Source: Escherichia phage vB_EcoM_PHB13
Length of the DNA: 64,000 bases
Strand: one strand, 5' to 3'
Sequence record: MK573636
The position numbers and the translations under genes are program-made. The notes under the pieces were generated by a model. That model saw nothing but the letters and a program-made list of their open reading frames with translations. It was not told the origin of the DNA and did no database searches. Positions 1 through 58,158 of this stretch are shown in pieces (positions within the stretch are counted from its first letter, which is position 1; every line of letters begins with the position of its first letter).

Positions 1-84
1 TCCGCGTTGGGAATTTATGCTTCTTCCGTGTGACCGCATTCTGTTTCGTGCTGTTCAATTAGTGAAATGATAGAGGATTATATT

Positions 85-645: not shown

Positions 646-648
646 CAC

Positions 649-683: not shown

Positions 684-708
684 ATTTAAACAACTAGAGG
701 ATTATATT

Positions 709-1887
709 ATGGCTAAATTCTTTGAAGGTCATTACTATGCATTCCGTGAAGGTGGTAAAGATGAGTTTCTAGACTTTTCTCGCTATTCAATTATTCTGAC
801 CGATGCTTCGCGCCGTGGTCATATTCGGGTTGCTGAAATCGTCGAAAAGGGCTTTAAAGTATTAGAAAAAGATGACAACGGTCATGTTATTACTATTGAA
901 GCTGGAGATGTAGTTTATTCCGCTGAGGATATCGTTTATTATTGGGCTACTATGATTATGCACGATGAGCGTAAATACTTTAAACGCATCTCAAAAGAGG
1001 CATACGAAGCGATGAACAAGAAAGAGGATGCAATGCCGACTTACTTTGAAAAAGGTAAATGTTATTCGTTTACACCAGAAGGTTTGCAAGAATTTAAGCG
1101 ATTCTGGGGAGAGCATGATCCAGATCACAAAGAAGCTATGAAACTTGTTGATTTTGTCGAATATGGCTTTTTAGTTGAAGAAGAATTGCACGGATCAGCT
1201 ACCATGATCACCGCGAAAGGTGAAACTGTTAAGGCAGATCGTTTTTGTGATCAATGGGCTTGTGTGTTTGATGGTGGCGAATTTGAATACTTCGCGGAAA
1301 TCACGAAACAACAATTTCATTCTATGCAAGCGGATGGTCAGAGATTTAAAGTAGGTGAACGCTACAAGCCAAATCAGCATAATTTGCCATATTGGTTTAC
1401 CGCTGAAACTGTATCAAGTCATGTTGTTGAAATTGTTCAAAAGCTGGGACAAGGATTTAAGGTGACTAAAGTAGATGATTATGGAAGTGTTGACGCGGTT
1501 GAAATTGATGGTGTAGAATATACACCGAAATCTTTCGGGCTTTGCTGGTATCACTTGATCAGCAATGATGAACGTTATAACTTTGTTGAACTGCCATCTG
1601 AACCGGAAGAAGCACTAGAAGATCATGATCATCTGTCTGAACTGGTTAAACTGTTTGGTGATCTGCCGGATGGTGTAGGCGTGGCGGTAATGGGTGAAGG
1701 TACTGTTATTCGCAACCTGAAAGACCTTAAAAAGTTCTTGATTGACATGCTGCCTAAACTTGATGATAATCTCGATAAAGATATTCAGAATCGCAAAGAA
1801 ATTGTTAAAGATACTGAAAAAGAGATCGAAGAGATTCGAGCAATTCGCCAGAAGGTGAAAGCAGTAAAGAAAAAAGTTAGTGCTTGA
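709..1887 (+). CDS. hypothetical protein, three tandem copies of the family beta-domain plus helical C-terminus
   Basis: ORF track; internal repeats ending DERKYFKRIS / EFEYFAEIT / ERYNFVEL. Confidence 0.6.
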   Translation: MAKFFEGHYYAFREGGKDEFLDFSRYSIILTDASRRGHIRVAEIVEKGFKVLEKDDNGHVITIEAGDVVYSAEDIVYYWATMIMHDERKYFKRISKEAYEAMNKKEDAMPTYFEKGKCYSFTPEGLQEFKRFWGEHDPDHKEAMKLVDFVEYGFLVEEELHGSATMITAKGETVKADRFCDQWACVFDGGEFEYFAEITKQQFHSMQADGQRFKVGERYKPNQHNLPYWFTAETVSSHVVEIVQKLGQGFKVTKVDDYGSVDAVEIDGVEYTPKSFGLCWYHLISNDERYNFVELPSEPEEALEDHDHLSELVKLFGDLPDGVGVAVMGEGTVIRNLKDLKKFLIDMLPKLDDNLDKDIQNRKEIVKDTEKEIEEIRAIRQKVKAVKKKVSA

Positions 1888-1917
1888 CATGCGAAGGGAG
1901 TATGCTATAATACTCCC
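1884..1917 (+). promoter_or_regulatory. early promoter TTGACA-16bp-TATAAT with stem-loop GGGAGTA...TACTCCC
   Basis: read directly. Confidence 0.5.
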
Positions 1918-1941
1918 ACTTAACAACGAGAGGATTATATT

Positions 1942-2436
1942 ATGTGGGTACAAGATGTTTGGTATACTGTAACTAAAGAAAACCTTGACGCATTCAGCGA
2001 CCAATCTTGCGCTAATAGCTCAATTGCTGGTATACTTACTGATGTGTTTGGTGGTGTAGATAAAATTCGTTTTAAAGTTGTTGTTAGTTCGCTGGGTCAG
2101 GTGAAAGATCTTTACACCGAAGATAAAGACCTTGATCTTGAACTTCGTCTTCGTATTGATAATGCAAGTCTAGGTTATTGGTTTGAAGATAACGAATATG
2201 AATACTTCACACCAGCAATTAAAGTTTTTGCGACTAAACTGGAAGCTGTACTGAATCTACGACCAATTAATGTTGACGGCTACATTATCAAAAATATTCA
2301 GGATTGGGAGTTGTATCTAGATCAGGTTATCCGAAATAGTAAGCAGGAAGCCGCTAATAAGAAGCGACAAGAGATTAAACAGCTTAAAGCTGAACTGGAA
2401 GCGGCGGAAAAAGAATTAGCAGAACTGGTAAAATAA
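1942..2436 (+). CDS. hypothetical protein with family-like motif (EYEYFTPAIK) and coiled-coil C-terminus
   Basis: ORF track; SD GAGGATTATATT. Confidence 0.5.
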   Translation: MWVQDVWYTVTKENLDAFSDQSCANSSIAGILTDVFGGVDKIRFKVVVSSLGQVKDLYTEDKDLDLELRLRIDNASLGYWFEDNEYEYFTPAIKVFATKLEAVLNLRPINVDGYIIKNIQDWELYLDQVIRNSKQEAANKKRQEIKQLKAELEAAEKELAELVK

Positions 2437-2444
2437 CTATCAAC

Positions 2445-2468
2445 GAGCGGGAGAAATCCCGCTTTTTC
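2445..2468 (+). terminator. intrinsic terminator-like hairpin AGCGGGA-gaaa-TCCCGCT plus T-run
   Basis: read directly. Confidence 0.45.
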
Positions 2469-2480
2469 ATAGGTGATACA

Positions 2481-4343
2481 ATGGAAAAACTAATCAAAGA
2501 CATTACAGAGATCGCAACGGGTAAAGAAAACGAAGTAAGCAAAGAGAACGCGAACAAAGACGCGCGAACATTCCCGACACGTCGAGATCTGATTGCTGGT
2601 GCTGTGTCTAAACAGATTGCTAAAACCGTGTTACCTGAGCACATCTATAAAGCGCATGTAGACGGTGACATTCATTATCATGATATGGATTATGCACCCG
2701 CTATGCCGTTTACTAACTGCTGTCTTGTTAATCTCAAAGACATGTTAGAGAATGGTTTTAAATTGGGTAGCGCACAAATCGAAAGTCCGAAATCAATCGG
2801 CGTTGCTTGTGCTGTAACCGCTCAAATTATCGCACAGGTGGCAAGTCATCAATATGGCGGGACCACAATCGCAAACATCGACCAGGTGTTAGCGCCGTAT
2901 GTTAAGAAAACATATCATAAACACCTTGCTGATGCCGAAGCCTACGGAATCAAAGCTGATACTCTCTATGCACAAGAGAAAACAGAAAAAGAAACGTTAG
3001 ACGGATATCAGGCGTTGGAATATGAGATCAACACTTTGTTCTCTACCAACGGTCAAACACCTTTTGTGACTTTAACCTTTGGTATGGGTACTAGCTGGGA
3101 AGAAAAACTGATTCAGAAAGCGATCCTGAAAGTTCGAACTAAAGGTTTAGGTAAAGACGGTATAACTCCGGTGTTTCCTAAGCTGGTGATGTTCTTAGAA
3201 GAAGGATTAAACCTTAAACCGGAAGATCCGAACTACGACATTAAGCAACTTGCATTGGAATGTTCTAGTAAGCGTCTTTACCCTGATTATATCTCTGCGA
3301 AGAATAACCGTAGCATCACTGGATCTAGTGTTCCGGTTAGCCCGATGGGTTGTCGTAGCTTCCTGGGTGTGTGGCATAATGATAAAGGCGAGGAAGTATT
3401 AGACGGACGTAATAACTTAGGTGTTGTGACTCTGAATCTTCCGCGTATTGCCCTTATTGCCGCTCGTCGTGCTGGTAAAGCGTCTGTAATGCGCAGAATT
3501 GAGCTATTCGAACAAGAGCTAGCTAATCGTATGCCTATTTGCTTTGATGCGCTCATGAGTCGCGTAGACGCTTTAAAAGGGGCTAAAGCCAATGTTGCTC
3601 CGGTGCTGTATACAGAAGGTGCATTTTTCCGTATTCATCAAAACGATGAAATTTTGGAAGTGTTGAAAGATGGTCGCGCTAGTATCTCTCTTGGGTATAT
3701 TGGTTTACATGAGGTATTGAGCGTCCTGTTTGGTGTTCATCCGTTTGATTCGGAAGATGCGCAGCGATACGGTAAACATATTCTTAAGATCTTGCGTCAT
3801 TATACTGAAAAATGGAAGGATGAAACCGGACTTGGGTTTAGTCTTTACGGTACGCCAGCCGAGAGCCTTTGCTATCGATTTAATCGACTGGATCGAGAGC
3901 AATTTGGTATTGTTAAGGGTGCTACCGATAAAGACTGGTACACCAACTCATTCCACCTTGACGTAGACCGGAAAGTCACACCATTTGAGAAAATCGACTT
4001 TGAGAAAGATTATCACTGGCTGGCGTCCGGTGGCATGATCTCTTATGTTGAGTTCCCAGACATGAAAAACAACCTGAAAGGTCTTGAAACTGTAGTAGAC
4101 TATGCAATGGATAAATTGCACTACTTCGGTGTTAATACTCCTTCTGATGTATGTCATGTATGCGGATCTAATAAGGAAATGAGAGCGACCGAGTCTGGTT
4201 TTGTTTGCCCTGATTGCGGCAATGACAATCTGGAAAAGATGAATGTTATCCGTCGCGTTAGTGGATATCTTGGATCTGTTGATCTGCGTCCATTCAACCA
4301 CGGGAAACACTCCGAGATGGTAAACCGCGTTAAGCACATGTAA
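2481..4343 (+). CDS. nrdD: anaerobic ribonucleoside-triphosphate reductase
   Basis: 620 aa; C-terminal Zn ribbon CHVCG...CPDCG and glycyl-radical motif RRVSGY; T4 NrdD-like. Confidence 0.9.
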   Translation: MEKLIKDITEIATGKENEVSKENANKDARTFPTRRDLIAGAVSKQIAKTVLPEHIYKAHVDGDIHYHDMDYAPAMPFTNCCLVNLKDMLENGFKLGSAQIESPKSIGVACAVTAQIIAQVASHQYGGTTIANIDQVLAPYVKKTYHKHLADAEAYGIKADTLYAQEKTEKETLDGYQALEYEINTLFSTNGQTPFVTLTFGMGTSWEEKLIQKAILKVRTKGLGKDGITPVFPKLVMFLEEGLNLKPEDPNYDIKQLALECSSKRLYPDYISAKNNRSITGSSVPVSPMGCRSFLGVWHNDKGEEVLDGRNNLGVVTLNLPRIALIAARRAGKASVMRRIELFEQELANRMPICFDALMSRVDALKGAKANVAPVLYTEGAFFRIHQNDEILEVLKDGRASISLGYIGLHEVLSVLFGVHPFDSEDAQRYGKHILKILRHYTEKWKDETGLGFSLYGTPAESLCYRFNRLDREQFGIVKGATDKDWYTNSFHLDVDRKVTPFEKIDFEKDYHWLASGGMISYVEFPDMKNNLKGLETVVDYAMDKLHYFGVNTPSDVCHVCGSNKEMRATESGFVCPDCGNDNLEKMNVIRRVSGYLGSVDLRPFNHGKHSEMVNRVKHM

Positions 4344-4348
4344 TTTTC

Positions 4349-4381
4349 AGCCGATCCGAAAGGGTCGGCTTTTTCGTTTTT
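4349..4381 (+). terminator. intrinsic terminator AGCCGATCC-gaaa-GGGTCGGCT plus T-run
   Basis: read directly. Confidence 0.55.
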
Positions 4382-4386
4382 GGGTG

Positions 4387-4414
4387 TTGACAACCTGATT
4401 AGCTAATGTATAAT
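4387..4414 (+). promoter_or_regulatory. sigma70-like promoter TTGACA-16/17bp-TATAAT
   Basis: read directly. Confidence 0.45.
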
Positions 4415-4443
4415 GCTCACATCGAAAACAACGAGAGGACAAC

Positions 4444-4986
4444 ATGATGATGATGTTTTGTGTACTGAGCAAAGAAGTTAAACTTCGTAAACTGGAAATT
4501 GGCGATGGTGTTGTTGTTAAAATGCACGCTAGCACATTGGCTAGTTTTAATTTAAAGGAAAGTTTTTTTATTAGAGGAACGGTGGTTAATGTCTGCTGGA
4601 GTCAAGGCGAAGGAATCCGTAGCTTTTGCGTAATTGACGATGATAATAACCTGTATGTGATTCGCTATCATAATAATTCTGTATTGGTCTATACCGACAA
4701 TTCACGAGAATTATATACTCTTGAATTTGTTAAGCGTACTGATTGCGACCGATTTGTTCGTGCTTATGAAGAAGATGGCTGTTTTGCGACTGAAACAGAA
4801 ACAAATGAATATGTTCCTATGGAAGTAGGAGCAGAAATTAAACACAAGATCACGGATCGTATTTTTAAGGTTGTGGCGGTTGCTCATACTCAATTTGTAG
4901 CGCAAGCGCCGGATGAAGAATTTATTATCTACAATATTGGTAATGCAAGTTCTCATTTTCATAATGTACTATATCGCGACCTTTGA
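4444..4986 (+). CDS. hypothetical protein
   Basis: ORF track, 180 aa, no recognised motif. Confidence 0.45.
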   Translation: MMMMFCVLSKEVKLRKLEIGDGVVVKMHASTLASFNLKESFFIRGTVVNVCWSQGEGIRSFCVIDDDNNLYVIRYHNNSVLVYTDNSRELYTLEFVKRTDCDRFVRAYEEDGCFATETETNEYVPMEVGAEIKHKITDRIFKVVAVAHTQFVAQAPDEEFIIYNIGNASSHFHNVLYRDL

Positions 4987-5003
4987 TAATGTGTGAGGTG
5001 AAT

Positions 5004-5531
5004 ATGAAATCATTAAACCGTAAGCGTAAAGCACAACGACACAAAGAACTAGCTAAAAAGATTGCTATTGAACTGGTTGAGCGTGAGGATAGCTATTTGT
5101 CTACGGGTCGTTTGTATACATTCCATGCATTGATTGATGGTAAGCCAGTGTTGCATAATCATGATTGTTTGGCACTGTTTCACGAAATCAAACCAATTCA
5201 TCGTGAATGGGATGACAACAAAGCAAAAGGTCAATATTTCCTTACTTGTTCGTGTGGTCATGCTGGATGTGCTGGATATTGGGAACCTGTTACTATCCGT
5301 GAGAAAAATGATACCATTCAATGGGTCGCCCGTACCCGCGATGGTTATGATAAAGGTGCTGATGGTACTGGAGATAACGTAGTTTACTTTAATCGTGATT
5401 GGTATTATATGGCGCGATGTATGATCCTGTTTTATCTTGACTCGATGCCGTATGAATATTTCAGTTTCCAGAATGGGACCGAACTGACAGGGAAGGAATG
5501 GTCTGACTACATTCGAAAAAATTTAAAATAA
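5004..5531 (+). CDS. hypothetical protein (Cys/His-rich: CSCGHAGCAGY)
   Basis: ORF track 4983..5531; start moved to ATG after SD GAGGTGA. Confidence 0.45.
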   Translation: MKSLNRKRKAQRHKELAKKIAIELVEREDSYLSTGRLYTFHALIDGKPVLHNHDCLALFHEIKPIHREWDDNKAKGQYFLTCSCGHAGCAGYWEPVTIREKNDTIQWVARTRDGYDKGADGTGDNVVYFNRDWYYMARCMILFYLDSMPYEYFSFQNGTELTGKEWSDYIRKNLK

Positions 5532-5535
5532 ATGC

Positions 5536-5564
5536 TTGACGGGGATCGCGAGATCCCCTATACT
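5536..5564 (+). promoter_or_regulatory. early promoter TTGACG / TATACT with stem-loop GGGGATC-gcga-GATCCCC in spacer
   Basis: read directly. Confidence 0.45.
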
Positions 5565-5606
5565 ATATTCATCAAGACGAGATACAACTTTACAGGAGAA
5601 TCAAAT

Positions 5607-5759
5607 ATGTGGACTTTACTGATTTGGGAAACTGAAAACGCACAAGTAGAAATCCGTGAATACGAATACCTAAGCCCAGCTTATCTATTAGCATCTCGCG
5701 GTGGTTACTATAAAGCGCAGATTGTAAACGAGTTCGGGGTAATTGAATATGAGTTCTGA
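5607..5759 (+). CDS. hypothetical small protein (50 aa)
   Basis: in-frame ATG within track ORF 5532..5759 after SD AGGAGAATCA. Confidence 0.3.
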   Translation: MWTLLIWETENAQVEIREYEYLSPAYLLASRGGYYKAQIVNEFGVIEYEF

Positions 5760-6252
5760 TACATACGGCAAACTACGCTATGCCGATATTAAAGATTGTG
5801 ATATGGTTAACGGTGAGGGAGTGAGAGTCTCCCTTTACGTTACCGGATGTTCACACGCATGTGATGGTTGCTTTAATGCTAGCCTACTCAATCCTAAGAA
5901 CGGGGAACCATTCACCGATGATACAATGGGATTGATTCTGGATCTGCTTAGACCTGATTTTATTCAGGGGCTAACATTCTTAGGTGGCGATCCACTGTAT
6001 AAACGCAATTTAAAGGGTGTACAGCGGATCATCGATGAAGTAAAATCATGGATGCCAAATAAAGATATTTGGCTATGGTCTGGTTATACCCTTGACCAAT
6101 TGAATGATGAGCAAAGAAAAATTGTAGAATCAGTTGACATGTTCATCGATGGGCGTTATATTAAAGATATGCCAACGAAGAAGCCGTGGCGGGGGTCTGA
6201 CAATCAAGTACAATACAAGATTGTTAATAGTATTCCAGTGAAAATTATTTGA
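5749..6252 (+). CDS. nrdG: anaerobic ribonucleotide reductase activating protein (radical SAM)
   Basis: Cys cluster GCSHACDGC (C-x3-C-x2-C); position next to nrdD. Confidence 0.8.
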   Translation: MSSDTYGKLRYADIKDCDMVNGEGVRVSLYVTGCSHACDGCFNASLLNPKNGEPFTDDTMGLILDLLRPDFIQGLTFLGGDPLYKRNLKGVQRIIDEVKSWMPNKDIWLWSGYTLDQLNDEQRKIVESVDMFIDGRYIKDMPTKKPWRGSDNQVQYKIVNSIPVKII

Positions 6253-6262
6253 GGTGATTATT

Positions 6263-6790
6263 ATGGAATGGGAAGTTGGTAAAACTTACAAGATTGAATG
6301 CGAAGCGTCGAAAGCCGAACTGACTAAATTTTCGTCGTCTATTAACAGATGTATTGTTGACTTGTTGGCTGGTCGCCCGTTTAGGGTAGAAGACCTTGAC
6401 GATGATGGTGATGTTAGAGAAATTACTATTATTGGTAGTAATTTCGACTCTATGACGTTAAAAGAATCCCCTATTGGCTGTTCCGGTGTGTGGTTTTGGT
6501 CGGGTGAGCGTCGTTTCTTTACCGAAGTTACTATTGAACCTAAGATTCCAGATTCGGAAGAAAAAGAAGAAGACCTAACTTTAGAACGCCTGGGTCTGCT
6601 TATGGAAGCCTACGACATTCAGTTGATCGATAAGATGGGGTTACATAATAGCATTGCCAAAATTACTACCCTAGAAGGTATTAAGAGCGTGCTTGATGGT
6701 ATGCCTAGCCGGATCGGTGCTATCCGAGAATACAAGCAAACGCGCGACCGTATGATCCAATTAGAATCACGTATCAAAAATGAGAGATGA
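6263..6790 (+). CDS. hypothetical protein, repeat-domain family (MEWEVGKTY... / ERRFFTEV)
   Basis: ORF track 6254..6790, start moved to ATG. Confidence 0.55.
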   Translation: MEWEVGKTYKIECEASKAELTKFSSSINRCIVDLLAGRPFRVEDLDDDGDVREITIIGSNFDSMTLKESPIGCSGVWFWSGERRFFTEVTIEPKIPDSEEKEEDLTLERLGLLMEAYDIQLIDKMGLHNSIAKITTLEGIKSVLDGMPSRIGAIREYKQTRDRMIQLESRIKNER

Positions 6791-44508: not shown

Positions 44509-45309
44509 ATGAAAAACATTATCGCTGCGATCGTTCTTTCTACTACGGCTTTCGGTGCTAATGCTGCGTCCTTTGATTGCGCTAAAGCTACTACCAAACC
44601 AGAGAAGTTTATTTGTGCTAATGAGTCAATCTCCGCACTGGATTCTAAACTTAATGAAGTATATGTTAAGGCTGTTAAGATTGATCCATCTCTTAAACAA
44701 GAGCAACGCAACTGGAATAAAACTGTTCGTGATACAATGATCAACATCGGGCAAATACAGCCACTGGAGGCTGTATATAACGCTCAAATCCAAAACTTGA
44801 TGAACGTATTACCTAAAGAAGAAACAGCGTCAGAAAGCGATTCAGAGACTTCTGCGAAGGTTGAAGAAGAACAACCGAAACAAGAAGAAAAAGTGGTAGA
44901 GCAACCGAAGAAAGAAGAGAAAATCTATGGATCTATCACTTACCAGTGCATTGCAAAATTTACATGGAAAATCATTGATGGTATTGAGACAGACAGCCGC
45001 AAAGATCCATTGTATGGAAACTCTACTTATGGCAACAAGGGCGGAAAGCTGAAAATGACCATGACCGAAGGTGAATTGTCTTCTTTCGTATATGTTGATG
45101 AGCGCGAAGTGTTTAAATCAAATCTGACACGCAGCAAACAATATAAAAATATGGTTGTTGGTATGAGCAAACCGGATGTAGCAGGATACTTCAACGAGTA
45201 CAAAATGTGGGTAGGGGAAAACGATGAAATCCGCTTTGAAGTCATCGAGAAAGGTCGCATTAGCTATGATTATGGTACTCAATATGTTTGCGAATATAAG
45301 AAGGGTTAA
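44509..45309 (+). CDS. secreted/periplasmic protein with N-terminal signal peptide and DUF1311 (LprI lysozyme-inhibitor-like) domain
   Basis: signal peptide ...AFGANA/AS; motif FDCAKATTKPEKFICANESISALDSKLNEVY...EQRNW. Confidence 0.55.
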   Translation: MKNIIAAIVLSTTAFGANAASFDCAKATTKPEKFICANESISALDSKLNEVYVKAVKIDPSLKQEQRNWNKTVRDTMINIGQIQPLEAVYNAQIQNLMNVLPKEETASESDSETSAKVEEEQPKQEEKVVEQPKKEEKIYGSITYQCIAKFTWKIIDGIETDSRKDPLYGNSTYGNKGGKLKMTMTEGELSSFVYVDEREVFKSNLTRSKQYKNMVVGMSKPDVAGYFNEYKMWVGENDEIRFEVIEKGRISYDYGTQYVCEYKKG

Positions 45310-45591
45310 ATGATGAAATTTAACAACATGAAGTTTAAAAAAGATTGGTGGGATGCTATGAGAGCTAACGACCGGATCGGAATTGGAAAGGCAGAAAAGA
45401 CAGTTGTTATTGTCAAGTATAAAGCGACGCAAGATCTTTTGATTAAGGAACTCATTCGAGCGGGTAACTATCAAACACCGGAAGGTCTTATTGACATGAT
45501 GGTTGATAACATGTATAGTGACGAACCACCAAACATTAAACAATATTACAAGCAGTATTACCGAAAGTGGCAGAATTACAACCGAAAATAA
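45310..45591 (+). CDS. hypothetical protein
   Basis: ORF track. Confidence 0.35.
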   Translation: MMKFNNMKFKKDWWDAMRANDRIGIGKAEKTVVIVKYKATQDLLIKELIRAGNYQTPEGLIDMMVDNMYSDEPPNIKQYYKQYYRKWQNYNRK

Positions 45592-45614
45592 GTTGTTGAC
45601 GTGAGGATTATATT

Positions 45615-45806
45615 ATGGTAATTTTTAATCGCGATGGTATCATAGTTCGGCAACACCCATTCCTTGAATACTATCAGGTTGAACAATGGGGATATGGGGA
45701 TTGTTCTCGATCATACGGTCAAAGCTGGGGATACCGTACAGTTTTTGAATCAACCGATATTGACAAAGTACGACAGAAAGTTTTAGAACTTCTTAACGAT
45801 AAGTGA
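45615..45806 (+). CDS. hypothetical protein
   Basis: ORF track; SD GAGGATTATATT. Confidence 0.4.
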   Translation: MVIFNRDGIIVRQHPFLEYYQVEQWGYGDCSRSYGQSWGYRTVFESTDIDKVRQKVLELLNDK

Positions 45807-45816
45807 GGATTAAATC

Positions 45817-46185
45817 ATGGAAATTCAAAACAATTACGAAAAATGTGTTATTATCAATGATTTGCAACGTCAATTGCATCATTACGAAACCGATTATAAA
45901 ACAGCAACCAAAACCGGAAAGTTGAAAGTGTGGGAAGTCTGGTATAACCGAAACTATCTGGGAAGCATCCACAAACTTGATCGCAGTGATGTTTATACAA
46001 TGCATGTGGGCGCGTGTGGCGAATCGGATGTAGCATCTAATTTCATGGAAGCACTTGCATTCTATGTAGAATATCTGGTAGACTATATCGAGTTGGAAGA
46101 GGAAGTGGTAGAATTGCTTCCTCCACCGGAAGAAGCGCCGGAAGCAACGATCCTGAAAGCATTAAAGAAAATCTTTGTTAAGTGA
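45817..46185 (+). CDS. hypothetical protein
   Basis: ORF track. Confidence 0.4.
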   Translation: MEIQNNYEKCVIINDLQRQLHHYETDYKTATKTGKLKVWEVWYNRNYLGSIHKLDRSDVYTMHVGACGESDVASNFMEALAFYVEYLVDYIELEEEVVELLPPPEEAPEATILKALKKIFVK

Positions 46186-46193
46186 GGTGAACT

Positions 46194-46526
46194 ATGAAAA
46201 ATGTACTGATTGTGTGGGAACTGATTCCAGAAACTACTGAATTATACATGGTACAGGTTGATAATAAAGAATTTGAAATTCTGAAACGCGTCAACTGCAA
46301 ATATATTAACATTGATGACATGACCCCAGAAATGGACTATGTAAACTATGCTCTCATGCAGCCTAGTTGGATTATGGATGAAACTAAAGCCGACGCCGAA
46401 TCGCTGGGTGTACCGGAAGAAGTATTAGCGAAATGGCATCAATTCAAAGTTGAAATAAAAGAGGGCGAACCGTTTATTCCTAGTGGTATGATCGATGCGG
46501 TGATCGTAACAGGTTTTCATCTGTAA
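46194..46526 (+). CDS. hypothetical protein
   Basis: ORF track. Confidence 0.4.
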   Translation: MKNVLIVWELIPETTELYMVQVDNKEFEILKRVNCKYINIDDMTPEMDYVNYALMQPSWIMDETKADAESLGVPEEVLAKWHQFKVEIKEGEPFIPSGMIDAVIVTGFHL

Positions 46527-47588: not shown

Positions 47589-48245
47589 TTATCTAATCCT
47601 TCCGAGGATTCTGGCAGATTGATTGCAAAGAGTATCTAAATTCTCAATGTCAATATCCGGTTTATTCTTCCATGAAATGGCGATACTACCAGAATAGACA
47701 TTATCGAGATTGAATATAGGACAAGAATACATGAAACCTATATCGATATTCTCTAATTTCTTTTCTCTTGATGGAATATACTGGAAATCTTTATCGGTAA
47801 AATATGATTTACCTAAAAGATGCCTACGATATTCTTCACTCGTTTTATTGATAGGGAATCCGCCTAAATTTTTTTCATCGATTGTGTGTGGTAGCTTTCC
47901 TTCATATGCCACCAAATCAACAAAATAGTTTAGGTTTTTCGGACGAAAACTAAAAACAGCAGAAAAATCGGCATCAGCCGACACATGAACTATCTGTAAC
48001 TGCTCCTGTGCTGCATTATCAAAATTGCGGTCTTTCTCTACCTGGAGAATGTGAGCATAAGTCTCATAACGAGTCTCTTTATAAAGCGCAAATAACTCGT
48101 TTTTACTATAAACGACAAATGCCAATATGGACAACACGACGGCAGCAAAAACACGAAGTACGAGCAACTCCGTGCTTTTAGTTGTGAAAATAGCGCGCAG
48201 GACATTTGAGATAGCAAAGTCTTTCCCTTTTTCAGAAACTTGCAT
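47589..48245 (-). CDS. t: holin
   Basis: 218 aa; strong similarity to T4 holin T (LEQLQIVHVSADADFSAVFSFRPKNLNYFVDLVAYEGKLP), one N-terminal TM. Confidence 0.85.
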   Translation of the reverse strand: MQVSEKGKDFAISNVLRAIFTTKSTELLVLRVFAAVVLSILAFVVYSKNELFALYKETRYETYAHILQVEKDRNFDNAAQEQLQIVHVSADADFSAVFSFRPKNLNYFVDLVAYEGKLPHTIDEKNLGGFPINKTSEEYRRHLLGKSYFTDKDFQYIPSREKKLENIDIGFMYSCPIFNLDNVYSGSIAISWKNKPDIDIENLDTLCNQSARILGRIR

Positions 48246-48278: not shown

Positions 48279-48518
48279 TTATTTAGGTAGTTGACTATCA
48301 CTAGGTTTATCTTGCTCGTTACTATCTTCTGACTGATCTTTATTAAACTCCTTATAAAGTTCTTCCACAAAACGATCATCAATTGGCGTATTGGTATAAG
48401 CCGCAAGACGACGAGCGCAATAGAAGAAAATTTTAGTGAGCATCTTTTCACTAATTAACTTTGACAATAATTTCATTCCGAAATTAGACAAAGCACCAAT
48501 GACGATATTATAGACCAT
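48279..48518 (-). CDS. hypothetical protein between gene 37 and holin (the T4 gp38 position; not gp38-like)
   Basis: ORF track; SD AAGGAGA. Confidence 0.4.
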   Translation of the reverse strand: MVYNIVIGALSNFGMKLLSKLISEKMLTKIFFYCARRLAAYTNTPIDDRFVEELYKEFNKDQSEDSNEQDKPSDSQLPK

Positions 48519-48558: not shown

Positions 48559-51477
48559 TTAATTCTTTTTAAGTTCCGCTAGTTCAGCTTTAACGGCTTT
48601 CAATTCTTCGCTCATTTCCTGAAACGCCTTAATTAAAAGAGCGTTGACAGCAGAGTTAGAAATTGTTAAGATCTCTTCTGGTTTATCTGGATCGCCGATC
48701 TTAGAAGTTGTTACTGCTTCCGGCAATTCTTTTTCAAGATCCTGAGCAATAATACCAACTTCATGAGCGATAACAGTGCGGTCCGTCAAAGACTTAACCT
48801 TATCGTAGGTGTACACAGTCAAGCGATTAACTTTATCGGTGGCATTCTCCTTATACTCTTCCTTGTTGATTTTCAGACGAGCATCAGAACGAATATACAC
48901 ATCGTTAAACGAACCGTTACGTCCTGCCGACATGTCACCGGTGGCGCTAAAGTCAAAGTTGGCGTCATTAACGTTTAGGCGTGCTATAGCATTACCTATA
49001 GTGCCGCCAGGAACGTGTACACCCATTGCCGCAATATGATATTTTCCCCAATGAGTCGCTTTCCAGATGTTATGAGCGGAATCGGTTGATTGAGGACAGT
49101 CTACGAGGATTCCGGCAGAACGATCACGCCAGCTAGCCCAGCTACCACCAGCAACACTACCACGAATCAAACCTTTATCAGATCCGCCGACGCTACCAGA
49201 TTCCAACTGGATCATTTTATCTGCAAATTTCCACACCTGGGCTTGTTTCTGACCACGGAAGCGAATAACACCAGCATCATCGCAGTACATCAAGCCTAAC
49301 TCTAAACCGTTCGGATCTCTAAACCAGATGTGCTTATTGCCAGTACGACGAAAATCAATATCAGAACCGCCCAAAATAATATTACCGCCAGTGGTAATTG
49401 CTTGCGGCCTAAGAGTACCGTTGATGGCAAACTCGATTAATTCAGTACCCGGACCGCCAGGTCGGTGGGTATACCAATGCCACCCGCTTTCATCACCGCA
49501 TTCAAATATTTGTTTACGACTATCGTTACCCCATACACGTAGAGTAAACGTAGATGCGGCGGTCCCTTTACCCCATTTAATTTGACCAGCAGATTCCAAA
49601 TCACCGAAGAATTTAGTTTTAATCGCACCAGTTGATAAAGTACGTTCAGTGGTGAAGTGTGCACCCATGCTATCGTCAAGCTGTAAGATGTTATCACGCG
49701 CGTTATTGCTATCGCCCCAATGGTTAAACCGGAAGTAGTCGCGGGAATTTAATCGCCCAGCGTCGAAAGTCAAATGCCCTTTCTTAATGTAAACGTCATT
49801 ACTAAAGCGAGCGGCACGAGAAGCACGTTCTAACGTTAATGCTTCTTCGTTACCATCACCGCCTAATTGAACGTTACCGGAAGTTAAATCATAAATGAAT
49901 GGACGATAGCTATTCCATCCACCAAAACGATCATTTTCGGCAGTAGAAAGAAGATAAACTTTAGTGCCGTCATTACGCCAGAATGCACCGTAATTACCAA
50001 AGATCATACGGTATGCATTAGAGTTAGCGGAATAATATTGTCCGTTGGTATATACAATTTTTGTTTTTCCTACCGACAGCGTAACCTGACCAGTATCATC
50101 CAGTCTTAATGAGTTAGTACCTTCCGTTAATTCATTTACTAACTGTACGGTGTTAGTAGTAGCGTCACCATACCCTAGATAACCTTGACGGCGGTTAGCA
50201 CCGGAACGATAATCATAAAATTCTAGGTAATTACTTTGTCCGTCTCTACGCTCCATTCTGATAGCGTTATTTCCCTTAACGAAAAGACGATTTACAGTAA
50301 CCCCATTAAAATCAATTTTTAGTTGGTCTGACTGATCAGTAACGCCAGTAGCTAAACGATATACGCCACCCTCGACAACCTCATGCCATATTGTTTCTGC
50401 GGATTTGCTACGAAACTTACGAAGATATTTTTTATTGCTATCAGTCGAGTTATTCAAGCTGATAATATCATACGTTCCTTGACCGTTATTATCAAACATC
50501 AACGTTCCGGCTTTGTTTTCGGTGTTGAACATGGTAATAACACGAGCATCAAATTTAGTTCCGGTTTCTGGTTTAGTCGCCGAAAATTCAGGAACATCGT
50601 GAACAGTCAATGCAACATCAACAGTTTTTCCAAACTCTACAATAACGTTATCAGTGAAGCGACCATAGTTAACATAAATGTCATAGTTATCACCGGAAGT
50701 ATTAATTGCAAATACTTCATGGACGTTCAAAGAATTTCGACGATATGCAGCAATACTAACGCCTTTAGGGTTATTATTACCACTACGAATCACAATTTCA
50801 AGGAAATCCACCTGATCGTAGGAGTTAACATTAAATCCGTTCCCACCATAGATTCGCAGAAACGCCATCCGACCACTCTGCGGGATCATTGCGGATGCAA
50901 TTTTAAAATAACCACGGGTTGCTCCACCAGAAGGAGTAGACATTTTAACGTTCTTAACAAACATACGGTCAATTTCTTGTTTGCTATAGACGTTCAATTC
51001 TGAGGGAGTAGGTTTATCACCTTCGTGATACATGCGAAAGCTGAATCTCTTGTTACCATCCTTATCAAAGCCATAGGTTTTAACCTGAGAGGAACTAGAA
51101 CCATATTGAAATTCGAACCCGCGACCGTGTGCTTTACCGCTGGGATGAGGAATGTTCAGAATCAAGTTAGACCAATCATCAGCATTATTCGGTCGAAACG
51201 CACCAAAATAATTAAGATCTCGCGCGGTTTGGTCTTCAAAATAATTAGCGGTTTTACTTAAAATATAATTATTTCCTTTAACCTTACCCGCCATTGTAAC
51301 ATCGCTGTCATAAACCGGAGGACAACTTAAATTGATAATAGCACCGGAATCATTTTTAGTAAGAAGATATTGATCCGCAAGGTTGATTGCCAATTCCCCC
51401 GGATTCATCGTACTAGCATCCGGTCGACGACCTTTAGTGCTAGTGCGTTTAAATTGGATTCTGCTTAAATCTGCCAT
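48559..51477 (-). CDS. 37: long tail fibre distal subunit gp37 with C-terminal intramolecular chaperone-like domain
   Basis: N-terminus MADLSRIQFKRTSTKGRRPDAS...GELAINLAD resembles T4 gp37; C-terminal coiled-coil tail ...AVKAELAELKKN. Confidence 0.8.
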   Translation of the reverse strand: MADLSRIQFKRTSTKGRRPDASTMNPGELAINLADQYLLTKNDSGAIINLSCPPVYDSDVTMAGKVKGNNYILSKTANYFEDQTARDLNYFGAFRPNNADDWSNLILNIPHPSGKAHGRGFEFQYGSSSSQVKTYGFDKDGNKRFSFRMYHEGDKPTPSELNVYSKQEIDRMFVKNVKMSTPSGGATRGYFKIASAMIPQSGRMAFLRIYGGNGFNVNSYDQVDFLEIVIRSGNNNPKGVSIAAYRRNSLNVHEVFAINTSGDNYDIYVNYGRFTDNVIVEFGKTVDVALTVHDVPEFSATKPETGTKFDARVITMFNTENKAGTLMFDNNGQGTYDIISLNNSTDSNKKYLRKFRSKSAETIWHEVVEGGVYRLATGVTDQSDQLKIDFNGVTVNRLFVKGNNAIRMERRDGQSNYLEFYDYRSGANRRQGYLGYGDATTNTVQLVNELTEGTNSLRLDDTGQVTLSVGKTKIVYTNGQYYSANSNAYRMIFGNYGAFWRNDGTKVYLLSTAENDRFGGWNSYRPFIYDLTSGNVQLGGDGNEEALTLERASRAARFSNDVYIKKGHLTFDAGRLNSRDYFRFNHWGDSNNARDNILQLDDSMGAHFTTERTLSTGAIKTKFFGDLESAGQIKWGKGTAASTFTLRVWGNDSRKQIFECGDESGWHWYTHRPGGPGTELIEFAINGTLRPQAITTGGNIILGGSDIDFRRTGNKHIWFRDPNGLELGLMYCDDAGVIRFRGQKQAQVWKFADKMIQLESGSVGGSDKGLIRGSVAGGSWASWRDRSAGILVDCPQSTDSAHNIWKATHWGKYHIAAMGVHVPGGTIGNAIARLNVNDANFDFSATGDMSAGRNGSFNDVYIRSDARLKINKEEYKENATDKVNRLTVYTYDKVKSLTDRTVIAHEVGIIAQDLEKELPEAVTTSKIGDPDKPEEILTISNSAVNALLIKAFQEMSEELKAVKAELAELKKN

Positions 51478-51547: not shown

Positions 51548-53038
51548 TTAGAAAGTACCAAAATCAATCACCGCATTAAGTGGAACTGCGCCAACATCAG
51601 CCGGAGTAGGTTTATTGCCTTCATGATAAAGCTGATAGCGGTCCACGGTTTGAGTATTGTTTCTAGAACGGAAAAACACGACCTTTGAGTCGTGGGTGAT
51701 CCCCAGCTTTTCGGTCCCTTTAATATCACTAATACGGTGAATCATAGCAGTACCATCAGCACCGCTTAACGCCGCATAACAGTTATCCCCGTTATAGTTA
51801 GTTTTAGCTGTTCTAACACCGTTTGCAGCCGGAACAGTTAACGGTCCTGTCATGGTATCGCCAGTTACGTTAACATAGCGAATATCGGCTAATTTACGGT
51901 GATCTACATAGTTCCATGCAGTCCATGATTCATTAGAACACGAACGCCAGCACATCGGATGATCAATAGATTCAGGATAATACACCTGAACAATTCGACG
52001 AGTACCGACCGCATCTTCTGGGCGATATACCATCAAAACGCCGTTATAATAACTATCAGACGGTTTATTAGTACCCGACCCAGCATTTTCCACACGATAG
52101 ATACCGCGATTAATAAGAGTGTTCCAATCAACGTTTCCAATGATGGTTGGATTTGCTACCATTGATTTTCTCTCAAAGTAGCTCAAACGAACCAATTCAT
52201 TAGGACCAGCAGGATCGTTTGTCGCCAACATTCTAGGCGCTTGCAAGTTACCTTCCATAATATCACCAGCACGTTTAACCTGTGCATCATTGGTGACATT
52301 GCCTAGCCCAACATCGGCTTTAGTTGGTTTATTGTTGGTGTGATAAAAACGACCTTCTCTGCCATTAACAAAAATGGTAGGCTCATCTTTACTTCGGAAT
52401 ACCAACGTATCAAGAACGTTACCATAATAGATCTTAGTCGCATCAAAATTAATTAAATCACGTTCCCTTGCAATTAATTTCGAATCAACCGATAGTTTAA
52501 CAGTGACAGTGTTTAAATTATATGTTCCTGTGAGAGTATCACCGCGACGAGACACCAAATCTAAATCATTATTCGTTGGTTTATTAACAGGGCTATAGAC
52601 GCGTTGACCTGTGTCTTTAATGGTTGTCCCTTCGATAGTCCCTTTAGACTTAAATTCGCCCGTTGTGGTGTCAATATACGCCATAATAACGCCATCACGG
52701 GCATTAACAAAGCCGATTGACTTCCATGAATGCAAACCCCAGCTTACGCCGTCAAAATTAGCGGCATCACTCTGGCCTTTAAAGATACCATTCTTTTTGG
52801 TTTCTCCAGCCGATGCGCTACCTACGCTTAAACCTTCCTCGAAATGAACTTGCTTTTGAAATGTGCCACCTTCGGATGCACTAACAGCATCAAAATCGGT
52901 AGCCGAAGGTCTATCAAAAGCGGTATAGATTTTATGACCTTTGTAGAAAAGCTGGTCCCCCGCTGGCTGGATCGTCAAGTTTCCTTGCGTCCAAATGGGA
53001 GATCCGCCTACAGTAGATCCATATTTCAAATCTGCCAT
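51548..53038 (-). CDS. 36: long tail fibre subunit gp36
   Basis: N-terminus MADLKYGSTVGGSPIWTQGN resembles T4 gp36; candidate late promoter TATAAATA upstream. Confidence 0.6.
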   Translation of the reverse strand: MADLKYGSTVGGSPIWTQGNLTIQPAGDQLFYKGHKIYTAFDRPSATDFDAVSASEGGTFQKQVHFEEGLSVGSASAGETKKNGIFKGQSDAANFDGVSWGLHSWKSIGFVNARDGVIMAYIDTTTGEFKSKGTIEGTTIKDTGQRVYSPVNKPTNNDLDLVSRRGDTLTGTYNLNTVTVKLSVDSKLIARERDLINFDATKIYYGNVLDTLVFRSKDEPTIFVNGREGRFYHTNNKPTKADVGLGNVTNDAQVKRAGDIMEGNLQAPRMLATNDPAGPNELVRLSYFERKSMVANPTIIGNVDWNTLINRGIYRVENAGSGTNKPSDSYYNGVLMVYRPEDAVGTRRIVQVYYPESIDHPMCWRSCSNESWTAWNYVDHRKLADIRYVNVTGDTMTGPLTVPAANGVRTAKTNYNGDNCYAALSGADGTAMIHRISDIKGTEKLGITHDSKVVFFRSRNNTQTVDRYQLYHEGNKPTPADVGAVPLNAVIDFGTF

Positions 53039-53207
53039 AAAGTAACCTCAAAAATTAGTTATAGTTCCGAGTATTTATAGAATGTTAACAAAATATCGCT
53101 TCGCGACGTGCCGTAGGCACTGACTAATTTTTAACCGAAACAAACTTTTCTATATTCTAAAGATCTTTCTTCGTTTTGGTTACATTTTAACCAACTGTAT
53201 AAAAATA

Positions 53208-53240: not shown

Positions 53241-54380
53241 TTAATCAACATCGAACTCTTTAAAGTTGTTGGATGTGATGTGTTTATTATCTCTGGGTAG
53301 TTTAAGAAGACTCATTACAGGGTTAGTAAAATCACCGTTATCCTGAATATGAGTTGTTCTAACACCATTAACACCAAATGAAGTAGGACCAGTAGTTTTG
53401 ACGACTCCACTGATCGGCGTTATTAGTATGTTTCTAATTTTAACAATACCTTCATTGGAGTTGGTTGGATATCTGATACAACCAGTTACTACACTATCGA
53501 CACCTTCCGGTACTGTATAGACTGCTTCAAACTTTTCCCATTGGTCTTTTTTGCTGGCATTGTATCTAACACCAGTTTTATATTGTCCATCGGTGAAGTA
53601 GTTGTGATAGAAACGCGCTGTTACGTTGGCTGCGGCTGCGGCACTATCACGGAACAATTCAAAGGATATTGATAGTTTGTCACCTGCCTTTATGTTAAAA
53701 TCTTCAAGTGGTGCGCTGATCTCATCGTGAGGCCATTGTATTAGCTCGAAATGTTCGGCATCTTCGCTAACATACTCAACCGGATAATCTAAAAATCGTT
53801 GTGGTGTTCCTGTTATAGCAAGATCATCTATAGTATCATAGACTTTCTCAATTTGTATAGATGAATCTTGTCCTTCCCCGTGAGTTGCTTGCATCCCTTC
53901 GCACACAATTTTACCCATTTTAGTAGAATAAATTGCTGCATATGATACACGAGGCATTTGCTGTAACAAAATGTGATTCGGGAATGATACCGATCCCATC
54001 TTAGAAAATACAACATCACTTATCGGATCTGCAAACAATTCTCCATGAGTTGCCATCGCAATGATATAATCACCTTTCAGCAAAGAAAGATAATCACGCA
54101 TTGCCAAAACAGCACCGCGACCATAGAATACCTTTTCTTCGTGTAGTTGTCCAGTTGGAGTAAGAACTTTAAAATTTAGGCCATTTTCATAGCCAGTGCC
54201 AACGATATCCACTCCATTAAATCTAATCCTTGCTGGTTTGGTAGAATCCGCATTAGATCCGCGCACTTCCAGCTTATACATCACAGAGTTATTTTCTGAA
54301 ATGCTGGTAAATGTCGCAGAGTCTTCGTCGAAATGCGCAAACCTAATTCCAGTGTTGCGTAATTCTATATCTTGTGTCAT
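53241..54380 (-). CDS. 35: long tail fibre hinge subunit gp35
   Basis: size and position between 34 and 36. Confidence 0.6.
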   Translation of the reverse strand: MTQDIELRNTGIRFAHFDEDSATFTSISENNSVMYKLEVRGSNADSTKPARIRFNGVDIVGTGYENGLNFKVLTPTGQLHEEKVFYGRGAVLAMRDYLSLLKGDYIIAMATHGELFADPISDVVFSKMGSVSFPNHILLQQMPRVSYAAIYSTKMGKIVCEGMQATHGEGQDSSIQIEKVYDTIDDLAITGTPQRFLDYPVEYVSEDAEHFELIQWPHDEISAPLEDFNIKAGDKLSISFELFRDSAAAAANVTARFYHNYFTDGQYKTGVRYNASKKDQWEKFEAVYTVPEGVDSVVTGCIRYPTNSNEGIVKIRNILITPISGVVKTTGPTSFGVNGVRTTHIQDNGDFTNPVMSLLKLPRDNKHITSNNFKEFDVD

Positions 54381-54417: not shown

Positions 54418-57400
54418 TTAGTCTTCCCAGATAAAGTCTACGGTACGAGTCAGATTATTGGCGATGATTTTAACATTACCAACTTTGATCCAATCACGAA
54501 CCGTCATAGAGTTCATTAAACCACCTTCTGCAACTACTGCCCCGATTTCCTGAGCTGTAGGCTTATTCTGTTTGGTGTAAATTTCACCCCATGCGGTCCA
54601 TTGACCACCAGTACCGGAACGGATATAATGTTTATGAGTACCATCAGGGGACCAAAGCTGGGTAAGCCCGTCCGCGTCAGTACCCCATTGCATCAGAGTA
54701 CCGTTTTTCTTCTCTGGATAAGTTTCTTTGATGTTCTGGGTAGTAACTCGCATATTCCAGAAACCGATGTTACCGATTGCTGGAGCGGTTGCCGCGCTAG
54801 CTTCATGCTTAACAGAAACAATAGGCGCATTATCCATAGTCAGCTTACCGACCATTGTATCGCCAGCATTCTTAACAAACTGACGGTTAAGAACTTCGTC
54901 AGCGTTTCCTGCGTGTACGATCTGATATTTCTGTCCGGCGATCTCTGTAGTTAACGTTTGATGACCTGCCTTGATGTTAACACTTCCACCGTGCCCGATA
55001 TTCAGCATACCATCTGGGGAACGAGTCATTGCCGGATTAGACTGGTCAACAATGTATAAACCGCCTTGTTTCGCATACAGGTTACGACCTGCAATAAAGT
55101 CTCTATATGCTGTCGCGTCGCCATTGTGTTTCATAGCAAAGGCGTAATGCTCGACGACTCCACCATCATTGATTTTACCGAAAGCGATAGCATCACTATC
55201 AACAACTTGCGCTGTTCCAGTACCACCAACGATAATAGACCATGAGTTTTTCATGCCTTCCGATGCGGTTGTGCCATGCAGAGTAATTCCGGTGTGTCCG
55301 TCAACTCCACGCTCACCCAACACCAGATGACCATTACTCGGATCATCAGTAGAGTTCTTAGTCACAGACAGAGTTTCAAAGGAACCAGATTTTAAGCACT
55401 CTAAATCGCCCTTCACGTTAACGTTTTTATTAAACGTGTAATTGCTCTCTATGGTCTGGTCAATGTCTCTACGCGCCCATTTAGCGGCCTCTACGTTACC
55501 CAATTTCAAACTATTCTGAGCGGTTGCCATCTTAGGTAAGAAATTAGCAAGTGCGTAGTTTAATCCTTTAGGGGTAACAGCAATTCCGTCATGCTGGTAG
55601 TTTCCTAGTTCTTGAGTAGAACCTTGCAGATTATCACCAACAAAACAGTTTTCCTGAGTAGCAACTTTCAAGAATCCACGACGCGCTTCTGTTGCTTTCC
55701 ATGTATCCTCTGTCTGAACAACATATTTGAAGTTCTTCGGAGAAATTGCTACATTAGCCAGTGTACCAGCCACGGTTTCGGCTTGAGTACCAACTCGGAT
55801 AATACCTTCTTTACCTTCGGTGGCTTTTTTGCCTTGTAGCTTTTTAGGCGTGATGATTGTAGTATCATCTTGACCAGCATCCGTAAGCTGAGTAGTAGCA
55901 ACTTTAGCGACACCTTTTGTGTCTTCGGTTGCATCCAGACCGCTGATCATGATACCTTGCCACAAATCACCAGTAAGGTTAAGCCCCTGAGTCGGATCTA
56001 CTTTCAAACGCTGTGCATTCTCAAAGAAGGTTTTAATCTTCAATGGGGTAGAAATGCGAGCATCGTCAAGACCTGCGTCAAACTCCGGTTGAGTTGCAAT
56101 TTCTGCTAAACCATGTAAAGTTTCCGTTGCGCGGCGAGTATGCAGCTTTTTAGGCGTGATGATATGGTTATCACTTTGACCTAAGTTTGTTTCTTCCTGA
56201 GTTGCAATTTCAGCGATACCAGTGCGCGATTCTGTAGCAGTACGTTTCGTTAGCGTGCGAGTCGTGATTAGTAAAGCATCTTGCGGGGTTGATTCTGTAG
56301 CCCCTTGCACTTCCGCGTCAGTTGCCAGATAGCCAACACCACGGGAAGTTTCGGTCGCCTTGACTTCGTTGATGTTTTGTGGCGTAACAATTTTAGCATG
56401 GTCGTTGATGTTATAGATCCCTGTACCAGCTTCGCCACGTCGAGCGGCAGCACTACCGCCAACCTGAACAATTTCAGCAATACCAGCGAGATCTTCGGAA
56501 GCGCGACGTTCTTCTAATTTCTTAGGAGTTATTGCGCGAGTATCGTCTAAACCTTCGTTGGTTTCATGTTGAGTTGCAATTTCCATCACACCACGACGGG
56601 CTTCGGTAGCAACACAATCATTTAACTTTTTAGGCGTAACGATAACATCATCCAGGAAGCTGGAACCAGTATCTTGATGCGTTTCCGCTTGAGTCGCAAT
56701 GCGAGCAATACCGCGTCGAGTTTCGTTGGCGGTTTTATTAGCCAGCATTTTTGGTGTTACCGCAACTTCGTCGCTAGGATTCTCTTCATGATTTTTATTC
56801 GTTTCAGTCTGGGTAGCCAGTGCAATTACACCAACACGATCTTTACGAGTCGGATCTACTCGTTCTACAATCGGGTGAGCATGTGCCACCAACCAGTATT
56901 TCTTACCATCATCAACTTCTGAATAAGAGAACTCCAGATAAGGTACATAATCATTTGCAGCGTTGAAAGACAATTCAGACACTCCCGTCCATGTATCGGT
57001 CCCATTGAATGGGTACTCGCTACGCTTAGGAAACTGAACCATGTTTTTCTGAATAAGGATTTTTGTATCCTCTGTGGCGGTGATAATACGGCAATTCTGG
57101 TTTCCTTGCATATACTGCATAGAAACTTGAATACGATCACCCTGCTCGACATTGGTCGGCAGCGTCAGAGTAACATCACGATCACCAAATACAGCAACAT
57201 AGCTATTAGGTTGCAAGCGAGTGTCATCGATGATCGGTTTAAGACGAACAGACTGATCACCATCCCACAAACGCCATAAGTTTTCCGTCTTGTCAAAGAT
57301 GAATACACCATGACCGCTACGCTTACCGATAATCTCTTTTAGACCGGACGTGCCAATTGATTGTTCTTCTGCGTGCTCATGAACTTTAACCGTAACGTGG

Positions 57401-58158
57401 TTGGTTGCGGTTAATCCGTCAAGGTCTGTAGTCTGGATCATGTCGCCATTGTTGGCAAACTTAGGAAGCACTAAGGTAATATTACCCAACGAACTACGAC
57501 GAAATACCTGATCACCATTCTGCATTTGAATAGCATCAATCGCTGGCTGTGCGTACACACCGCGCGGCTCTGTTCCCGTCTGATAAACATGCCAACGATT
57601 CCGAACAAAGATGAAATAGTTCATTGCATACGGGGTAGTGCAATACCATTTTCGGTTATACACATTACCGTTATGGTAAAACTCATGTCCTGAACTCAAG
57701 AACGATAATTCGTTAACACCACACTTGCCACCGATATCTTTTACTGTTATAGTGTCTCCCTCTGCTGGTTTAGTTGGCATAGAGAAAGTCAAGTTTGCAA
57801 ATTGACCATCTGCTGCGATATAATCACCAGACTTTAAAGGAGTATCACCGGAAGTTGCTGCAATATAATCCCAACGTGGGTCAGTGCGCAGTGCTTGCCA
57901 TTTAGTCGGGTCAAAATCACCTGCTGGCTTTGTGATATCTTCTTTTGCATAATACGGACGGTTTTGATAGATTGTAGTTCCGTATTGATCATAACCGCGA
58001 GTTGTGTCATACTGAGTAATACCATTATGGTAATTGAAAAATTCAACGTTGACCGCATCCGTTGATGTGTTTTTATCTGCGTATGCTACATTGACGACCT
58101 TTTCATTACCAGCGTCAAAGCCAAATGTGGCCTTGAAATGTTGAGAAAAATCTGCCAT
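54418..58158 (-). CDS. 34: long tail fibre proximal subunit gp34
   Basis: 1246 aa; extensive similarity to T4 gp34 (RGIARIATQAET..., GLAEIATQPEFDAGLDDARISTPLKIKT, C-terminus VGNVKIIANNLTRTVDFIWED). Confidence 0.9.
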   Translation of the reverse strand: MADFSQHFKATFGFDAGNEKVVNVAYADKNTSTDAVNVEFFNYHNGITQYDTTRGYDQYGTTIYQNRPYYAKEDITKPAGDFDPTKWQALRTDPRWDYIAATSGDTPLKSGDYIAADGQFANLTFSMPTKPAEGDTITVKDIGGKCGVNELSFLSSGHEFYHNGNVYNRKWYCTTPYAMNYFIFVRNRWHVYQTGTEPRGVYAQPAIDAIQMQNGDQVFRRSSLGNITLVLPKFANNGDMIQTTDLDGLTATNHVTVKVHEHAEEQSIGTSGLKEIIGKRSGHGVFIFDKTENLWRLWDGDQSVRLKPIIDDTRLQPNSYVAVFGDRDVTLTLPTNVEQGDRIQVSMQYMQGNQNCRIITATEDTKILIQKNMVQFPKRSEYPFNGTDTWTGVSELSFNAANDYVPYLEFSYSEVDDGKKYWLVAHAHPIVERVDPTRKDRVGVIALATQTETNKNHEENPSDEVAVTPKMLANKTANETRRGIARIATQAETHQDTGSSFLDDVIVTPKKLNDCVATEARRGVMEIATQHETNEGLDDTRAITPKKLEERRASEDLAGIAEIVQVGGSAAARRGEAGTGIYNINDHAKIVTPQNINEVKATETSRGVGYLATDAEVQGATESTPQDALLITTRTLTKRTATESRTGIAEIATQEETNLGQSDNHIITPKKLHTRRATETLHGLAEIATQPEFDAGLDDARISTPLKIKTFFENAQRLKVDPTQGLNLTGDLWQGIMISGLDATEDTKGVAKVATTQLTDAGQDDTTIITPKKLQGKKATEGKEGIIRVGTQAETVAGTLANVAISPKNFKYVVQTEDTWKATEARRGFLKVATQENCFVGDNLQGSTQELGNYQHDGIAVTPKGLNYALANFLPKMATAQNSLKLGNVEAAKWARRDIDQTIESNYTFNKNVNVKGDLECLKSGSFETLSVTKNSTDDPSNGHLVLGERGVDGHTGITLHGTTASEGMKNSWSIIVGGTGTAQVVDSDAIAFGKINDGGVVEHYAFAMKHNGDATAYRDFIAGRNLYAKQGGLYIVDQSNPAMTRSPDGMLNIGHGGSVNIKAGHQTLTTEIAGQKYQIVHAGNADEVLNRQFVKNAGDTMVGKLTMDNAPIVSVKHEASAATAPAIGNIGFWNMRVTTQNIKETYPEKKNGTLMQWGTDADGLTQLWSPDGTHKHYIRSGTGGQWTAWGEIYTKQNKPTAQEIGAVVAEGGLMNSMTVRDWIKVGNVKIIANNLTRTVDFIWED

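Follow-up and report, generated by a model that had tools for sequence, protein, structure and literature searches.

The open reading frame on the minus strand at positions 48,559-51,477 of the DNA analysed here (the window: 64,000 nucleotides, or 64 kb, of Escherichia phage vB_EcoM_PHB13, record MK573636) is, judged by the ORF list and its translation, a real gene for a gp37 precursor of 972 aa plus stop. Very probably it is gene 37 of an RB49-type Krischvirus, encoding a distal tail fibre that carries a self-cleaving chaperone and works with an adhesin, gp38, encoded far away on the genome. We propose that the 972-aa precursor would trimerise with the aid of the S74 chaperone at its C-terminus (aa 864-972); in a correctly folded trimer, Ser864, activated by Lys869, would cut the Arg863-Ser864 bond and the 109-aa chaperone would leave. 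The distal end thereby exposed on the 863-aa mature fibre would then receive one copy of gp38, a polyglycine-sandwich protein with hypervariable loops, which would bind the receptor (OmpA or certain O-antigens). Gene 38 would be encoded about 54 kb from gene 37, between the rI/tk block and dam and to the left of window position 1, and the 79-aa ORF between genes 37 and t (ORF79) would be a small gene in its own right, linked to the lysis cassette.

Gene 37 and its neighbours

By megablast the window falls in the genus Krischvirus (RB49-like coliphages), and its fibre locus is 92-96% identical to those of AV108, FL37, W115, RB49 and GoldenSnicker. The fibre and holin genes form a minus-strand block, the surrounding region being plus-strand, and the GC skew is reversed at 48-58 kb. 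Genes for the proximal half-fibre were assigned from their ORFs and from synteny with RB49: gene 34 (1246 aa, 54,418-58,158, minus strand; RB49p248) and gene 35 (379 aa, 53,241-54,380, minus strand; RB49p249). They are followed by a gene 36 homologue of 496 aa, the distal connector (51,548-53,038, minus strand), which matches phrog_16472 and phrog_1425, has a weak sub-threshold match to PF03903 and is syntenic with RB49p250. The T4 protein has 221 aa; the distal connector is much enlarged in the genus Krischvirus. Beyond gene 37 lie ORF79 and the T-type holin gene t (218 aa, 47,589-48,245, minus strand; Pfam PF11031, E 4.5e-61). The order in the window, 34-35-36-37-ORF79-t, is thus that of RB49 (34, 35, 36, 37, RB49p252/dc5, t).

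A pattern search for the T4-type late-promoter box TATAAATA found only two in the window, one upstream of gene 34 and the other upstream of gene 36 (53,072-53,079, minus strand). The latter likely marks the start of a late transcript covering 36-37-ORF79-t. A scan of the fibre locus for sigma-70 promoters and terminators gave nothing above shuffled expectation.

The gene 37 product (48,559-51,477, minus strand) matches phrog_1699, 'long tail fiber protein distal subunit' (E 1e-184), and is 82% identical to RB49 gp37. The initial annotation had matched its N-terminus to T4 gp37, and this is borne out by BLASTP, in which aa 1-71 (51,265-51,477, minus strand) are 48% identical to the T4 protein (E 2e-13), as well as by the position of the gene after 34-35-36. 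This N-terminal region, presumed to be the end that joins gp36, is 94-99% identical among the Krischvirus relatives; the shaft has a weaker similarity to T4 gp37 (25% by BLASTP). Within the shaft, aa 454-539 (49,861-50,118, minus strand) form a gp34-like trimerisation segment (Pfam PF21446, E 1.7e-28) with phmmer matches to the T4 gp34 structures 4uxe and 5nxf, and a weaker second copy is found at aa 640-705. Residues 474-539 and 640-705 (within 49,363-50,058, minus strand) are homologous both to the C-terminal region of T4 gp34 (4uxe, 5nxf) and to tail fibre protein S of phage Mu (5yvq); these segments are fibre building blocks held in common with the two proteins. Full-length gp37 searched against the PDB with phmmer returned the gp34-like segments only, and a search of NCBIfam gave nothing useful.

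The C-terminal chaperone and its predicted cleavage

The extreme C-terminus of gp37 (aa 864-972 of 972, 109 aa; 48,562-48,888, minus strand) is an intramolecular chaperone domain of the Peptidase_S74 family, predicted to be released after trimerisation. A profile search identified PF13884 ('chaperone of endosialidase') at aa 864-923 with 44.9 bits (E 1.4e-11; curated cut-off 22), a match that spans the whole 58-position profile. The domain ends in a helix: an AlphaFold2 model of aa 760-972 (pLDDT 74.7) places a terminal helix of about 30 residues at aa 941-971, and the fold resembles that of solved chaperone domains. The chaperone-like helical tail described in the initial annotation is therefore real, and the C-terminal sequence quoted there is present in gp37, inside the S74 region.

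When the C-terminal fragment alone was used as the phmmer query, it matched chain A of PDB 6f45 (E 6e-5), which is gp37 of Salmonella phage S16 crystallised with its gp38 adhesin. The first six residues of the domain, S864-D-A-R-L-K869 (48,871-48,888, minus strand), form an autocleavage motif with a predicted scissile bond at Arg863|Ser864. An alignment of 24 homologues, each containing PF13884, shows no substitution at Ser864 or Lys869. The full motif in the window, DVYIR^SDARLKI, resembles those of fibres that bear gp38: the T2-like fPS phages have DVYIR^SDGRLKI, which has been aligned with the S16 cut site DLNVS^SDRRIKK, and in S16 cleavage of the chaperone exposes the dock for gp38 (PMC7917993). 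In T5 pb1 the catalytic pair, Ser1264/Lys1269, has the same spacing, and the cut falls at Thr1263|Ser1264 (PMC4690869). RB49 gp37 has itself been described as having a self-cleaving chaperone, alongside a gp38 adhesin (PMC9569957). The window protein is predicted to be processed into a mature fibre of 863 aa and a chaperone of 109 aa. One database protein of 303 aa (P0019) has a Gp38 N-terminus and GP38 domain fused to an S74 domain; a chimeric gene call, or an assembly error spanning a g37-g38 junction, is the probable cause.

gp38 and the fibre tip among Krischvirus phages

No g38 stands immediately downstream of gene 37 in the window, where 40 nt separate the gene 37 stop from ORF79. Searches of the 64-kb window by tblastn with RB49, MIZ4, T2-type and T4 gp38, and of its six-frame segments with a gp38 HMM, found no gp38 at all. 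The initial annotation was thus correct that the gp38 slot holds only an unrelated 79-aa ORF, which has no Pfam match. The absence of gp38, however, holds for the 64-kb window alone and not for this type of genome. In RB49 the gene annotated as g38 is RB49p079 (45,367-46,143, 258 aa), which matches Pfam GP38 (E 7e-72) and Gp38_N, the domain pair PF05268 + PF21721 of this adhesin family, and displacement of RB49-type g38 to the locus between rI/tk and dam was reported in 2011 (PMC3157838). The displaced locus is about 54 kb from gene 37. Window base 1 aligns to RB49 position 38,867, with the plus strand of the window corresponding to the minus strand of RB49, which places the expected g38 locus 6.5-7.3 kb beyond the left edge of the window; a comparison with AV108 gave the same position. 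Because this locus is outside the window, g38 could not have been seen when the initial annotation was made.

Over aa 771-972 the window gp37 is 98% identical to that of RB49, and no g38 adjoins it; the RB49-type C-terminus together with the lack of an adjacent g38 identifies the arrangement in the window as that of RB49. A displaced g38 was found in all 30 distinct phages that share at least 70% identity with the window in the C-terminus of gp37 (25 by tblastn, four by annotation under a match to the rI/tk region, and Brandy49 from PMC9569957). In a 2025 study of Krischvirus phages, gp38 was likewise away from the holin in FL37 and FL38, and adjoined it in FL04, FL15 and FL20 (PMC12032242). 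Judged from these relatives, the genome behind the window almost certainly carries a displaced g38.

The initial annotation had reasoned from the chaperone and the empty slot that receptor-binding determinants were therefore probably in gp37 itself. This part does not stand, and the annotation as a whole is partly supported, being right about the chaperone and wrong about receptor binding. Fibres of the S16/T2 type have both a gp37 chaperone and gp38, so the two are partners in a standard architecture (T2, T6, S16) and not the alternatives for which they were taken. A gp37 tip that acts as the receptor binder, as a local reading would have it, has against it the displaced g38 in 30 of 30 relatives and the spontaneous host-range mutants of RB49, whose changes are only in gp38, E230K and Y231S (Efimov et al. 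2022, PMC9569957).

The distribution of sequence differences in the two proteins was compared among RB49-type phages. In gp37 the most conserved parts are the chaperone domain (96-99%) and the N-terminal 90 aa (94-99%). Residues 771-863 (48,889-49,167, minus strand), which form the distal tip of the mature fibre up to the predicted cleavage site, are 98% identical to RB49 and 66-90% identical to other RB49-type phages; by analogy with S16 (PMC7917993), we infer that this would be the end on which gp38 docks. The shaft is mosaic, with aa 91-150, 361-470 and 661-720 only 40-75% identical among phages that are otherwise 92-96% identical. In gp38 the first 105 or so aa, the attachment domain with Trp7 and Trp20, are essentially invariant, and the differences are concentrated in the stretch between the glycine-rich motifs (alignment columns 140-240). 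This is the classical pattern of an adhesin.

The mosaic shaft leaves some room, though little, for dual recognition, in which gp38 would be the main adhesin and variable shaft or tip segments of gp37 would also touch surface polysaccharide and add to the host range. Efimov et al. found it counter-intuitive that so small a protein as gp38 should recognise several O-antigens plus OmpA (PMC9569957). However, the RB49 host-range changes reported in the same study are confined to gp38, mosaicism of fibre shafts is common and is usually ascribed to recombination between repeats (PMC3157838), and profile searches of gp37 with Pfam and PHROG detected no lectin or enzymatic domain. We consider this reading improbable.

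A separate observation concerns the origin of the adhesin. The displaced Krischvirus gp38 (RB49, L003 45,367-46,143) is up to 90% identical to gp38 of the Tequatrovirus PaulHMueller (L004 4,480-5,262), although gp37 of PaulHMueller is only about 40% identical to that of the window, and this in the chaperone domain only. Such likeness of gp38 despite the difference in gp37 suggests a recent transfer of the adhesin between genera.

Not every Krischvirus has g38 at the displaced locus. A 165.6-kb metagenome contig (L007, 1-3119; ENA ERZ28636940 scaffold_36) is 99% identical to window positions 1-6,282 and lacks the segment corresponding to RB49 45,005-46,456 (p080-g38-p078), and with it the displaced g38; about a dozen Krischvirus phages in the databases have the same deletion. 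The flank alone, therefore, does not predict g38, and flanks and fibre-tip module assort independently within this mosaic genus. In MIZ4 the order is gp37, gp38 (Pfam GP38, E 4e-71), ORF79, t, and the gp37 tail departs from that of the window at the very end. In G37-3 the order is gp37, three tandem paralogous ORFs of about 100 aa, ORF79, t; gp37 of G37-3 and of phiS is about 55% identical to that of the window over the last 272 aa. Krischvirus thus has three or more tip arrangements, which correlate with the type of gp37 C-terminus. The three small ORFs of G37-3 (L009 4,326-5,232) share a motif, FDIPNGW, and replace gp38, the displaced g38 being absent from that phage too. They have no Pfam or gp38 match, matched nothing in the 64-kb window when used as queries, and may belong to a different fibre-tip or adhesin system.

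Taken by itself, the L007 contig would favour the model of the initial annotation, that gp38 is absent from the phage altogether and that the gp37 tip (aa 771-863), once unmasked by the chaperone, binds the receptor directly. In T5 pb1, chaperone cleavage does unmask a self-contained receptor-binding domain (PMC4690869), and the window has an S74 chaperone, no gp38 in its 64 kb and a left flank nearly identical to one that lacks the displaced gene. But no T5 pb1-like receptor-binding 'bullet' domain was found directly upstream of the chaperone, and since the tip arrangement tracks the type of gp37 C-terminus, the complication raised by L007 is resolved. We regard this model as very unlikely. 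With respect to the proposed fibre carrying a distantly encoded gp38, the points that weigh against it are the position of the g38 locus outside the window, the lack of the displaced g38 in L007, the moderate variability of the gp37 tip (66-98%) and the existence of other Krischvirus phages that place g38 beside g37 (MIZ4) or have three small ORFs there (G37-3).

ORF79 (48,279-48,518, minus strand), the homologue of RB49p252/dc5, belongs to phrog_402 (E 5e-20), a family of unknown function, and has no match to GP38 or any other Pfam family. That it is a new fibre chaperone or adhesin standing in for gp38, as might be supposed from its strong Shine-Dalgarno sequence, its place immediately downstream of gene 37 and the homologues found behind the tail-fibre gene of Suspvirus and Felixounavirus phages, is the least credible reading of all: it occurs beside an adjacent gp38 in MIZ4 and so does not replace that protein, its conservation across Krischvirus phages is 96-100% whatever their tip arrangement, it is always directly upstream of the T-holin gene in these phages, and in Vibrio phage 1.036.O a GH108 endolysin gene immediately precedes its homologue, and that strand has no fibre gene in the vicinity. 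The Suspvirus and Felixounavirus homologues also lie next to an annotated holin, whose start is overlapped by 4 nt in Suspvirus mistaenkt. Members of phrog_402 thus adjoin lysis genes in three unrelated phage groups (window 48,279-48,518, minus strand; L005 2,992-3,189; L006 3,004-3,213), and they share the motif T-x-T-[PK]-x-DD. The N-terminus of ORF79 is moderately hydrophobic, with Kyte-Doolittle maxima of 1.3-1.6 that are borderline for a transmembrane protein. Tentatively, and from gene context, ORF79 may be an independent small gene associated with lysis, an uncharacterised lysis accessory.

Comparison with known systems

The locus is a typical RB49-type long-tail-fibre module of a kind already described: papers from 2011 to 2025 cover both the S74 chaperone with its docking of gp38 and the displacement of g38 in RB49, and the locus is otherwise textbook. 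Its practical significance is that in RB49-like therapeutic phages the host-range determinant to read or to swap is gp38 at the displaced locus and not the C-terminus of gp37; the fibre locus read in isolation misleads. RB49 itself has the same gene order with the same 79-aa ORF after g37, and its gp37 is 82% identical overall to that of the window and 98% identical in tip and chaperone. The two differ in the mosaic shaft (aa 361-470, for example, are only 42% identical), and the g38 locus of the window's genome would lie outside the window.

The relationship to T4 is more distant. T4 gp37 has a homologous N-terminus and homologous shaft segments and occupies the same position in the locus, but the window protein has no T4-type needle or His-rich tip, no BLASTP alignment to the C-terminal third of T4 gp37 and no PDB match to the T4 gp37 tip. 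The window likewise has no T4-type gp38, which is a Tfa-like chaperone. T4 gp37 uses the chaperones gp38 and gp57A, whereas folding of the window gp37 is predicted to be helped in cis by the S74 domain.

Fibres of the S16 and T2/T6 type resemble that of the window in having an S74 chaperone at the C-terminus of gp37, with the cleavage motif x-x-x-x^SD-x-R-[IL]-K. In these phages, however, g38 adjoins g37, and ahead of the cut their gp37 is for the most part unrelated to that of the window, no more than about 15-20 aa being alignable. In the T2-type PaulHMueller, for instance, the 40% identity to the window protein extends across the chaperone domain and gp38 is the next gene, while the RB49-type gp38 is close to Tequatrovirus gp38, as noted above. 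T5 pb1 and the K1F protein have a chaperone of the same family, the same Ser/Lys(i+5) pair and the same logic of release after trimerisation; in those two, the receptor-binding or enzymatic domain is part of the mature protein, whereas the mature end of the fibre encoded in the window is expected to carry a separate adhesin.
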